Shown in pieces: positions 3,437 through 4,484 of a stretch of DNA of 14,862 bases (its first letter is position 1; every line of letters begins with the position of its first letter). Made by a program: the position numbers and the translations under genes. The stretch comes from a virus. Its lineage: Duplodnaviria; Heunggongvirae; Uroviricota; Caudoviricetes. Under the pieces are notes generated by a model. It had not been told where the DNA came from. It saw only the letters and a list, made by a program, of their open reading frames with translations, and searched no databases. The stretch is from IMG/VR virus record IMGVR_UViG_2778261344_000012, one strand, 5' to 3'.

Positions 3437-3900
3437 TTTGCTGCTCCTCATCATATCGACCTTGCAAGGTCGGTTGGTTTCTCCACAAAACAGAGAAGAA
3501 CACCTGCGGTGGCAGCCGCCCGGATGGATTGGGTTATGAGCCCGTCGTCCGGTGATGCTCTTCTCTGTTTTGCAAAAAAGGACGGTACCAGCCGGAAGCA
3601 AGGGTACAAACTGGTACCGCCAGGACTACACACAGCATAAAGTTGTGGTGCCGGGTGCCTCCCGGTGCCTGGCGAAGGTTGCACACCAGGCGGGTGGGTA
3701 TCCACAGAAGGTCGACTGTCAGCCTCAACCTTAACCCGCGTGCGCTGAGCCGCATTCACCACAACGCTAAGGATTCTCTCTGGTTGAAAATACTTAGCTG
3801 TTATGTGCCTGCTTTTAGCCACATCAGGCGAGGTGGACCTGGTTATTCCCCAACAACAAGGATTCGGTTAATCTGGATATCCCCAACAACAATAAGAGTA
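3437..3900. other. GC-rich, highly structured non-coding region (candidate cis-acting RNA element or sRNA)
   Basis: No convincing ORF: overlapping track ORFs are Pro/Arg/Gly-rich with no RBS. Contains a perfect 16-bp palindrome CGACCTTGCAAGGTCG (3457..3472), a 14-bp long-range inverted repeat CAAAACAGAGAAGA (3486..3499 / 3559..3572), an 8-bp inverted repeat GGTACCAG/CTGGTACC (3584..3591 / 3611..3618), a tandem CCGG(G)TGCCT (3651..3670), GCCTGG/CCAGGC (3667..3691), and a direct repeat TCCCCAACAACAA (3847..3859 / 3880..3892). Confidence 0.3.
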
Positions 3901-3930
3901 TTCAATGTGATCGCTGAATTAACGGCAGCA

Positions 3931-4422
3931 ATGACGGCTATTCGTGAAACAGCCCAGATTGCAAAACTAATGAACGAGGCAAAAACTCAAGCTGAAGTAA
4001 ATGCGGCTATTGGTGAGCTGAACTCAAAGCTTGCGTCTATTCAGCGCGAATGCGTGTCTCTCGTTGAACTGGTGGGCTCTTATCAAGAAATAAATGCTTC
4101 TCTCAAAGCTAAAATTGCAGAATTCGAAAACTTTGAGGCTCAGACGGAAGGCTATATCCTTAACCAACTTGAGTCGGGTACTTTTGTATACTCGAAGGAG
4201 GTAATCGTGAACGGTGGCAGCATAACCATGCATCTTTGCCCAAAATGTTTTGGACAAAAGATAGTATCGATACTTCAACCATTCCCGGTTAGCGAAGATG
4301 AGCTTTTTCATAAAAGCAGGTGCCTCCACTGTGAAAATAAGTTTCTGATGAATAAAAATCCGGATTACGTATCGCCTCCATCCATTGAGGAGTTGTCCAG
4401 AAAACTTAACGGCAATCTGTAG
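3931..4422 (+). CDS. Hypothetical protein, about 163 aa: N-terminal coiled-coil-like region plus C-terminal CxxC...CxxC zinc-ribbon-like motif; immunity-region moron
   Basis: Protein-like translation MTAIRETAQIAKLMNEAKTQAEVNAAIGELNSKLASIQRE...CPKCFGQK...CLHCENK. Lower GC than its neighbours, opposite strand to flanking genes, followed by a plus-strand terminator. Start uncertain (ATG 3931, or GTG 3907 with weak AAGAG upstream). The track's 3643 start is rejected because the N-terminal extension lies in the structured GC-rich region. Confidence 0.55.
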   Translation: MTAIRETAQIAKLMNEAKTQAEVNAAIGELNSKLASIQRECVSLVELVGSYQEINASLKAKIAEFENFEAQTEGYILNQLESGTFVYSKEVIVNGGSITMHLCPKCFGQKIVSILQPFPVSEDELFHKSRCLHCENKFLMNKNPDYVSPPSIEELSRKLNGNL

Positions 4423-4456
4423 ATTACTACTGTTGTGGATATCCAGATTGTTAAAG

Positions 4457-4484
4457 AGCTAAGCGTCCTGTAGGGCGCTTTTTT
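4457..4484 (+). terminator. Rho-independent terminator for the plus-strand moron
   Basis: AGCGTCCTGTAGGGCGCT hairpin followed by TTTTTTGTTG, about 35 nt after the stop codon at 4420..4422. Confidence 0.5.

Follow-up and report, generated by a model that had tools for sequence, protein, structure and literature searches.

A probable Rip1-family defence gene in the sieB slot of an SfV-like lambdoid prophage, and the repeat frame around it

The viral DNA considered here is IMG/VR record IMGVR_UViG_2778261344_000012 (Caudoviricetes). "The window" denotes this whole stretch of 14,862 nt, in which the region 3300–4700 was read. It contains a small open reading frame (ORF) at 3907–4422, which is preceded by a short conserved element, bracketed by an inverted repeat and followed by a hairpin. 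A boxA-like motif is found next to the hairpin on the opposite strand, and two operator-like repeats are found farther to the right (Table 1). The ORF probably encodes a Rip1-family prophage defence protein, located in the slot that sieB occupies in phage lambda, within a lambdoid prophage resembling SfV, SfII and CPS-53. This reading combines sequence comparison, a structure model and analogy with published members of the family. An earlier reading of the letters by a model, referred to below as the original prediction, had proposed an undescribed defence or exclusion gene acquired as a discrete cassette.

The open reading frame between int and cI

The open frame spans 3907 to a stop codon at 4420–4422. 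GTG 3907 is taken as the start, since MIAEL or a similar sequence opens all 40 aligned homologues (39–93% identity); a Shine-Dalgarno-like TAAGAG is found 8 nt 5′ of it. In E. coli 2013C-4187, which carries an identical prophage, the RefSeq annotation pipeline (PGAP) gives the same coding sequence of 516 nt and 171 aa as a 'hypothetical protein' (WP_000559922.1). The ORF of the original prediction therefore exists, although its product starts at GTG 3907, the alternative start named there, and not at 3931 (about 163 aa), the homologue alignment and PGAP agreeing on 171 aa. Comparison with a 93.6%-identical copy in an O157:H7 prophage gives a ratio of nonsynonymous to synonymous substitution (dN/dS) of 0.14, which indicates a real gene under purifying selection.

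Other parts of the earlier description of the gene can be kept, some of them with changes. The RefSeq annotation of the identical prophage likewise has this as the only plus-strand gene between int and cI, and the gene's own terminator was detected as a hairpin at 4461–4480 followed by a T-run. The guanine-cytosine (GC) content of the ORF (0.42–0.45) is lower than that of the left region (0.52–0.57), as had been stated for its neighbours, but not than that of cI (0.39–0.43). Both CxxC pairs of the proposed zinc-ribbon-like motif are present, C111-x2-C114 and C139-x2-C142, although 24 residues and not 20 separate them; all four cysteines are invariant in the 40 homologues. An AlphaFold2 model made with the alignment of these homologues as input (mean predicted local distance difference test score, pLDDT, 85) has helices at residues 2–24 and 28–79, and then a beta-rich C-terminal domain.

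Table 1. Features of the locus (positions in the window; strand "." where neither strand is assigned)
Feature	Position	Strand	Remark
Conserved 'sieB-slot' upstream element GTGCCTGCTTTTAGCCACATCAGGCGAGGTGG	3806..3836	+	Left boundary of variable region
Outer degenerate left-arm copy ACCTGGTTATTCCCCAACAACAA, containing the first TCCCCAACAACAA	3837..3859	+	Exact 13-nt direct repeat
Left arm AATCTGGATATCCCCAACAACAATAA	3870..3895	+	In 5′ leader, just before Shine-Dalgarno
Predicted Rip1-family gene, 171 aa, GTG start	3907..4422	+	N-terminal helices, C-terminal beta/four-Cys domain
Right arm TTACTACTGTTGTGGATATCCAGATT	4424..4449	+	Directly after stop codon
boxA-like motif GCTCTTTAACAAT	4447..4459	-	Early-left (PL) transcript strand; adjoins right arm
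GC-rich hairpin AAGCGTCCTGTAGGGCGCTT + T-run	4461..4487	.	Terminator of plus-strand gene; on minus strand, directly before boxA
Two operator-like repeats TTGCGAGATATGCAA, TTGCGTGATATGCAA, putative OL	4651..4687	.	Implies leftward PL antisense through gene

Family assignment

Scans of the ORF with Pfam, NCBIfam and PADLOC gave nothing above threshold, sub-threshold coiled-coil noise being all that appeared. In PHROGs, phrog_1244 ('unknown function') covers the window protein over its full length (E 9e-60), and the same PHROG takes in HK446 gp37 Rip1, HK620 HkaP and JBD30 gp30, each full length. A phmmer search against the PDB found a sole significant match, chain L of 9oox, which is Rip1 (E 2.7e-7), with both CxxC motifs aligned. 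With a profile built from the 40 homologues, the match to 9oox reaches E 9.4e-20 and joins profile positions 5–156 to chain residues 15–160 of 164. The 9oox entry contains Rip1 (gp37) of Escherichia phage HK446 complexed with the small terminase of Enterobacteria phage T6. When the AlphaFold2 model was compared with the PDB by Foldseek, only 9oox_M and 9oox_L were found below E 1e-3. The 9oox_M match has E 2.3e-6, probability 1.00, a template modelling (TM) score of 0.72 by target length and 27% identity over 118 columns, and the remaining matches lie at E ~0.8–0.9 or worse.

Phage sequences point to the same family. The profile aligns with JBD30 gp30 over 151 columns in hhalign (99.2% probability, E 5.7e-20), and tblastn against phage genomes found the DMS3/JBD30/MP42/D3112 group of Pseudomonas phages (29% identity, E 2e-11), HkaP of HK620/HK630 (28%, E 3e-13) and HK446 (27%, E 4e-4). 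In a four-way alignment, the CxxC pairs of the window protein align with those of the HK446, HK620 and JBD30 proteins, and the four proteins have in common a small-residue-rich N-terminal helix, a long helix and a G..VY strand, followed in the C-terminal part by CxxC(F/Y)....(S/T)ILQ(P/Y) and then the second CxxC. Homologues in the enterobacterial subfamily are 40–99% identical to the window protein, which is assigned by these comparisons to a divergent enterobacterial subfamily of Rip1.

The profile, fold and PHROG matches thus make the window protein a clear Rip1-family member, and the statement that it could not be assigned to any family is withdrawn. The profile and structure-based homology search proposed in the original prediction is the one reported here, and it found a family with a solved structure, published in 2026.

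Known Rip1 proteins and the expected mechanism

Rip1 (ring-interacting pore 1) was reported by Patel et al. (Nature 651:1060, 2026), whose work is known here as summarised in a review (PMC13434031). It is a prophage protein of Pseudomonas aeruginosa encoded between the small and large terminase genes, and it is not toxic alone (PMC13434031). JBD30 gp30 lies at precisely this position, antisense between the two terminase genes. The Rip1 proteins described in print protect the lysogen, with proteins of foreign phages as their trigger; escape mutations map to the portal protein in Pseudomonas phages or to the small terminase in E. coli phages (PMC13434031). Cryo-electron microscopy revealed 12 copies of Rip1 around an 11-mer ring of small terminase, with the C-terminal half touching the ring and an amphipathic helix as the N-terminal part (PMC13434031). 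Rip1 complexes cause dye release from liposomes, holes in cells and premature lysis, and homologues, mostly borne by prophages, are widespread in Proteobacteria (PMC13434031).

We infer by analogy that the window protein follows the same mechanism in its trigger, oligomer, pore and phenotype. It would be made from the prophage and be harmless by itself. When a superinfecting phage makes a ring-shaped assembly protein, the small terminase or the portal, late in infection, the C-terminal domain of the Rip1 protein would dock around the ring. About twelve copies would then assemble, and their N-terminal helices would form a pore breaching the inner membrane, so that cell death would precede maturation of the progeny of the superinfecting phage. 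The window protein would thus probably sense terminase or portal rings, with a bearing on phage-therapy host range and on prophage immunity in pathogenic E. coli. A common E. coli prophage 'hypothetical protein', which is also found in O157:H7 prophages, can be re-read as a Rip1-type pore-forming defence.

The sieB slot

The homology of the window to SfII, SfV and mEp460_4F5 stops exactly at 3836, the right end of the conserved element. This element, of ~35 nt, is also found upstream of lambda sieB (NC_001416 34396–34431; 1301–1336 of the lambda locus L206), HK446 rip1 (~3350–3393 of L011) and HK620 hkaP (~2889–2932 of L012), at a distance of 50–110 nt from these genes (~50 nt in lambda). The same element precedes every cassette in the slot, in many phage backgrounds. 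The plus-strand sieB gene of lambda (34482–35036) lies antisense with ral/orf28 and N as its neighbours; rip1 of HK446 and hkaP of HK620 are likewise antisense, with N on one side and the cIII side of the PL operon on the other. Since the element at 3806–3836 is common to lambda sieB, HK446 rip1 and HK620 hkaP, the window gene is placed in the sieB slot in the strict homologous sense, and the rexAB/sieB-type hotspot named in the original prediction has turned out to be a slot homologous to that of lambda sieB. Probably the element contributes to the promoter or leader that serves the accessory gene, a processing site being another possible role. A small pseudoknot may be formed by it from GCCTG/CAGGC and CCAC/GTGG, which are 98% paired across 28 variants; covariation comes from one sequence only (L038), in which both stems have compensatory changes (GCCTT/AAGGC and CCGC/GCGG).

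A counterpart of the TCCCCAACAACAA duplicated in the leader (window 3837–3895) was noticed in lambda (L206 ~1335–1385) and HK446 (L011 ~3395–3450), where two copies of CCCCTACAG lie in the stretch from the element to the start codon; those of HK446 are each apparently in a hairpin loop. The leader architecture is likely to be common to sieB-slot genes.

Megablast of 3400–4800 against phage genomes found the same cassette at 99% in four ECOR13-derived phages (PhiR49_1, PhiR29). SfII, SfV and mEp460_4F5 match both flanks while the cargo differs, with junctions at exactly 3836 and 4491; the mEp460 match breaks at 3622 and 4582. Because the flanks match while the cargo differs, a variable slot is recognised between yfdP and cI in SfV/SfII/CPS-53-like prophages. 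Insert polymorphism in related prophages, which the original prediction had proposed to look for, is therefore found: SfII, SfV, SfIV/Kati and mEp460 hold different cargo between the same flanks. The cassette is present in SfV-like context in at least 384 of 5426 complete E. coli genomes. In an O157:H7 Rac-like prophage, the same gene with its arms and ~70 bp of upstream sequence is found between an exonuclease remnant and racR; the Rac prophage of K-12 presumably carries sieB at the equivalent position next to racR.

The slot is what the window gene has in common with SieB of lambda and P22. In both cases a plus-strand gene lies antisense inside the PL operon and follows the conserved upstream element, and lysogen expression is expected. 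HkaP of HK620 was annotated as 'putative superinfection exclusion protein' on such positional grounds. The proteins themselves are different: in a single BLASTP comparison, lambda SieB aligned over only a 39-residue stretch (28%, E 0.004), and SieB is outside phrog_1244. The window gene is accordingly classed by sequence in a different protein family from SieB, as a positional analogue only. The lambda sieB position is seen from these comparisons to be a common slot, which across lambdoid phages is taken by SieB, Rip1 and at least 10 other unknown small genes; the one conserved upstream element in front of them provides a simple route to harvest candidate defence genes.

The Salmonella prophage ST64B was seen to match the slot flanks at ~80%. 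For ST64B, high expression of two genes downstream of cI, and of the non-coding RNA STnc1310, is reported in cells shocked with peroxide or nitric oxide (PMC7067206), and the equivalent slot may be transcriptionally active there.

Alternative readings of the gene

The defence-type accessory gene foreseen by the original prediction agrees with both lines of evidence, in that the family has experimentally shown anti-phage activity and the position is the sieB slot. The likeness to Rip1 of the HK446 gp37 and JBD30/DMS3 type extends from phrog_1244 and a similar length (164–171 aa) to the helical N-terminal half, the C-terminal beta domain with CxxC...CxxC and SILQ(P/Y), and a gene that is prophage-borne, antisense to a lytic operon and provided with its own terminator; the HK446 and HK620 genes also lie in the sieB slot behind the same upstream element. 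As differences, the window protein has a C-terminal extension of ~15 residues, its gene has no adjoining N gene, and the frame of arms and boxA described below is absent from HK446, HK620 and JBD30. Several points weigh against the assignment or its functional extension. Identity to characterised Rip1 proteins is 27–29%, so that the window protein could depart from them in its trigger and even in its defence phenotype. A model of the family is missing from Pfam and from PADLOC (2023), and membership is therefore anchored in one solved structure and one PHROG. The maximum hydrophobic moment of the N-terminal helix, 0.44, was reached by 34% of shuffled sequences, in a crude test that set none of four Rip1 homologues, characterised ones included, apart from shuffled sequence. 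No transmembrane segment is predicted in the window protein.

The possibility that the gene represents a genuinely undescribed defence or exclusion family, resembling Rip1 superficially through a coiled coil and a zinc ribbon, finds some room in the empty Pfam, NCBIfam and PADLOC scans and in database names that all read 'hypothetical protein'. It is nevertheless very improbable, and at the level of family assignment it is refuted, because the full-length profile and fold matches are specific to Rip1 and to nothing else, three Rip1-type genes are in the same PHROG, and conservation extends beyond the cysteine pairs, for instance to SILQP and G..VY. A different proposal leaves the family as it is and changes the role: a Rip1-like protein might serve the cycle of its own prophage, for example as a timing device of holin type or by binding its own terminase or portal ring in a regulatory role. 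The family does bind ring-shaped packaging proteins (PMC13434031), its gene lies between terminase genes in Pseudomonas phages, and the defence phenotype of the window copy is attributed by analogy. This proposal is nonetheless improbable, since published Rip1 shields lysogens in response to foreign phage proteins (PMC13434031), and since a gene antisense to the lytic operon with its own terminator has the layout of lysogen-expressed accessory genes. The slot, moreover, is freely swapped for unrelated genes, so that its content is dispensable for the phage, and a copy disrupted by IS3 exists in an otherwise 100%-identical prophage region. What is new under the Rip1 reading is the divergent enterobacterial subfamily and the re-annotation of a common E. 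coli prophage gene, the family itself being already known (2026, with a solved structure); the conserved slot and the frame of boxA plus stem, a side observation, are of further value.

The IS3-family element was observed in E. coli 2011C-4315 (2745–3958 of locus L010, corresponding to window ~3937–3939), where it interrupts the same rip1-like gene at its 5′ end. A truncated ORF of 150 aa remains there, and the surrounding prophage region is 99.9–100% identical.

The early-left region

Just beyond the cI terminator (4722–4705), the operator-like sequence TTGCGNGATATGCAA is found at 4651 and again at 4673, and similar sites occur at 5455 and 5503, in the interval from cI to cro. This order of terminator and repeats parallels tIMM-OL-pL-nutL as annotated in HK620. 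The repeats and the HK620-like layout support the presence of OL/PL to the right of the ORF, with leftward transcription running antisense through it; the promoter itself is a putative one, which we infer from these neighbours. The operator-like 15-mers, of which two are left of cI and two between cI and cro (4651–4687 and 5455–5517), have the consensus TTGCGNGATA(T/A)GCAA and probably define the immunity specificity of the phage.

The repeat frame and its cargos

The inverted repeat noted in the original prediction is real, and it is longer than the 19 bp given there: 3870–3895 and 4424–4449 are 85% complementary over 26 nt. The extra direct repeat on the left is also confirmed, TCCCCAACAACAA being exact at 3847 and 3880. 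The idea that these repeats are the ends of a discrete cassette belonging to the gene does not hold, because the same arms bracket unrelated cargos in a conserved frame. The window and Kati/SfIV have in common 54 nt on the left (3837–3890) and 48 nt on the right (4443–4490), and Kati/SfIV has an unrelated cargo of 668 bp (phrog_5286 and phrog_1744), bracketed by a diverged version of the same repeat. The outer copy at 3837–3859 is common only to such 'framed' relatives, for example Kati, SfIV and the O157 prophage.

IMG/VR was scanned for the left arm and, independently, for CCAGATTGTTAAAGAGC. More than 40 distinct cassettes of one plan were found, with the left arm at a homologous position. 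On the left, the conserved element is followed by the degenerate arm copy, by AATCTGG(A/T)TATCCCCAACAA, and by the Shine-Dalgarno sequence and cargo (500–900 bp); on the right, the cargo is followed by ...GGATATCCAGATT, GTTAAAGAGC, the GC hairpin and the T-run. This frame of arm, cargo, arm, opposite-strand boxA-like motif and hairpin encloses more than 10 unrelated cargo genes, among which are close and distant rip1-like genes. Throughout ~120 cassettes or viral contigs, the cargos are all on the plus strand, in one orientation with respect to the left arm. The hairpin is kept across cassettes, with loop and stem variants. A bracketing repeat was sought around the Rip1 genes of HK446, HK620 and JBD30, and none was found. 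By these comparisons the inverted repeat is assigned to the conserved frame and not to the rip1-like gene.

In some cassettes the arm sequences are different but still complementary, as in AATCTGGATGACT/AGTCATCCAGATT (L176, L160 and L189) and GATACCCC/GGGGTATC (L169), and a further change on both sides is seen in GGATGACT/AGTCATCC. Among 29 aligned arm pairs, 7 of 16 positions are changed on both sides, which was reached by at most 1 of 500 shuffles.

The alternative cargos, all of them uncharacterised, are candidates for new prophage accessory or defence genes, and PADLOC gave no match for them. The cargos seen include a pair of 144 aa (phrog_5286) and, antisense, 67 aa (phrog_1744) at 2506–3118 of the Kati locus (L004); a signal-peptide protein of 170 aa with a weak LprI match; predicted membrane proteins of 148–166 aa and of 160 aa; and small proteins of 87–98 aa. 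Loci with alternative cargos are L004, L176/L160/L189, L169/L140/L165/L173, L181, L138 and L163. A SLATT-like identity was considered for some cargos with two transmembrane segments, and was unsupported by Pfam and PADLOC.

boxA and the long-range stem

In the direction of the early-left transcript, along the minus strand, the frame begins at its right end with hairpin AAGCGCCCTACAGGACGCTT, a single A, GCTCTTTAACAAT, and then arm AATCTGGATATCCACAACAG. GCTCTTTAACAA occurs once in the window, as the only exact match, where ~0.002 exact matches to a 12-mer would be expected by chance with both strands counted. The boxA-like motif is identical over 11–12 nt to boxA of the annotated nutL and nutR of HK620 and to an rrn spacer boxA, reported as CGCTCTTTAACAAT (PMC4553445). 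The same pattern search recovers the annotated nutL of lambda (GCTCTTAAAAATTAA followed by boxB), and nutL (GCTCTTTAACAT) and nutR (GCTCTTTAACAG) of HK620, each then followed by boxB CCCGCCGAAATGCGGG. The motif is kept in every framed cassette.

In the minus-strand RNA fold of 4490–3830, the arms form a 25-bp stem that includes three G-U pairs. An outer stem of 8 bp is formed by AGCAACAA (4490–4483) with the second CAACAA repeat, the CAACAA of the outer copy (3837–3859) pairing with TTGTTGCT at 4483–4490. Both stems are present in the minimum free energy (MFE) and centroid structures. In the plus-strand RNA the arms form a stem of 14 bp, and this pairing is likewise found in MFE and centroid folds.

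On the PL strand, a hairpin and then GCTCTTTAACAAT precede the first arm of a long-range stem around an untranslated segment. This order resembles that of the rrn leader, where boxB and boxA come before the leader-side strand of the stem at which RNase III processes 16S rRNA. It is different from a lambda-type nut site. A boxB of 5-bp stem and pentaloop was looked for after boxA, and the repeat arm was found in its place; the RefSeq annotation of the identical prophage has no N gene; and the window contains no further boxA that would correspond to nutR. Complexes of boxA with Nus factors shield untranslated rRNA and CRISPR transcripts from Rho (PMC12360218; PMC7665894), the protection of untranslated CRISPR arrays being a precedent for the case considered here (PMC7665894).

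In other viral contigs (L157, L170/L196, L180 and L139), the 17-mer GCTCTTTAACAATCTGG is followed by different sequences, of which 18–24 nt are perfectly or nearly complementary to a site 260–690 nt further on. Long-range stems starting right after boxA may be a wider phage feature.

Possible functions of the frame

The reading preferred here, put forward only tentatively, is that the frame may be an RNA-level device: present on the leftward early transcript, it would allow early-left transcription to pass through an antisense insert. The boxA of rrn/nut type on the early-left transcript would recruit Nus factors and block Rho, while the co-varying arm stem would loop out the untranslated antisense stretch of ~530 nt, so that early-left genes would still be expressed. 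The stem might also steer RNase III to the insert or mark the insert for processing, as rRNA leaders do for 16S, and the hairpin would double as the terminator of the cargo mRNA. Small defence genes of any kind could in this way enter the lytic operon without polar effects. With a similar degree of doubt, the arm/boxA/hairpin frame may be regarded as an 'insulated slot' of a kind not described before, by which lambdoid prophages that lack N can take up one antisense accessory gene after another. It shares with phage morons and prophage hotspots (rexAB downstream of cI, P2/P4) an independently terminated accessory gene in a lytic operon, and different cargo at one site in related phages; it is different in that many cargos are placed in one bracketing frame with complementary arms and boxA. 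To our knowledge, such a frame is not part of the usual description of morons, and no description of one was found in the literature searched. If the proposal is true, it would explain how phages tolerate antisense insertions in essential early operons, and the few untranslated RNAs for which protection by boxA is known would be joined by one from a phage.

Several observations speak against such a device. On the PL strand the hairpin precedes boxA, so that boxA cannot aid RNA polymerase past the hairpin. The unframed relatives SfII, SfV, mEp460 and 4F5 have no boxA at the equivalent place, and boxA therefore travels with the frame and not with the phage backbone. A consensus promoter scan of 3300–5600 on both strands found no promoter, including those of cI and cro, which means that the scan is too insensitive. 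The arm pairs were partly selected by complementarity, although the left arms are at a homologous position by the conserved leader. The wobble asymmetry toward the minus strand (75 vs 34) is what the base composition of the arms predicts (~70%), and as a test of strand it is thus uninformative. Several of the long repeats adjacent to GCTCTTTAACAATCTGG enclose ORFs on the boxA strand.

Two other explanations of the repeats have to be weighed with the device on the early-left transcript. The arms might act in the plus-strand cargo mRNA, where pairing of the 5′ leader with the 3′ untranslated region by the terminator would stabilise the message or gate translation. The 14-bp arm stem of the plus-strand fold, the left arm that ends at the Shine-Dalgarno sequence and the travelling of the frame with plus-strand cargos are all in keeping with this idea, which is still rather unlikely: the minus-strand duplex is the better one, with 25 of 26 positions paired when G-U is counted, vs 22 of 26 on the plus strand. 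Its corollary, that 'boxA' is merely a conserved sequence flanking the terminator, is itself unlikely, as an exact boxA of 12–13 nt that equals functional nut and rrn boxA is hard to see as a passenger (chance ~0.002 per window). The inverted repeats might alternatively be the ends of a mobile cassette (like a transposon, a miniature inverted-repeat transposable element or an integron cassette) or of an invertible segment, by which the gene was acquired. A 26-nt imperfect inverted repeat that brackets the ORF exactly suggests as much, as do the cargo exchange junctions between the window and Kati/SfIV, which fall inside the arms at 3890 and 4443, and the occurrence of the gene, the arms and ~70 bp of upstream sequence in a different prophage type. 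This origin is nevertheless quite improbable. The same arms surround many unrelated cargos at the same site, which makes them features of the site and not of the cargo, and the Rip1 genes of HK446, HK620 and JBD30 have no such repeats. No transposase or recombinase is nearby in the RefSeq annotation of the identical prophage, and the bases flanking the cassettes contain no consistent target-site duplication. Comparison with related prophages found neither an empty hairpin nor an empty site in the fetched loci. The single orientation in all ~120 cassettes also argues against mobility, and on the same ground an invertible segment is rejected. Insertion of the cargo into the loop of a pre-existing local hairpin was considered as well and is unsupported, no short-distance arm pair being found in any fetched locus.

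Other features

Rfam at its gathering threshold found nothing in the whole window. Below this threshold, a full-length match to STnc100 (RF02076), a gammaproteobacterial small RNA, was seen on the minus strand at 3572–3795 (40.3 bits vs gathering 47, E 5.6e-7). The match belongs to the early-left strand and falls within a GC-rich 'non-coding' stretch between the slot and yfdP, and a very weak DicF-like match is found at 3580–3634 on the same strand (E 2.5). The STnc100-like match overlaps a frameshifted 'hypothetical protein' of RefSeq at 3451–3762 (minus strand); in Kati and SfIV, the frame of this region is continuous with yfdP, as an ORF of 226 aa. The region may encode a protein, an RNA or both. 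The ymfH gene of the K-12 prophage e14 matches 3700–3836 at 95%. Just upstream of yfdP, on the early-left transcript, a strong local inverted repeat of 24 nt joins 3486–3509 and 3549–3572, with 83% complementarity and a loop of 39 nt.

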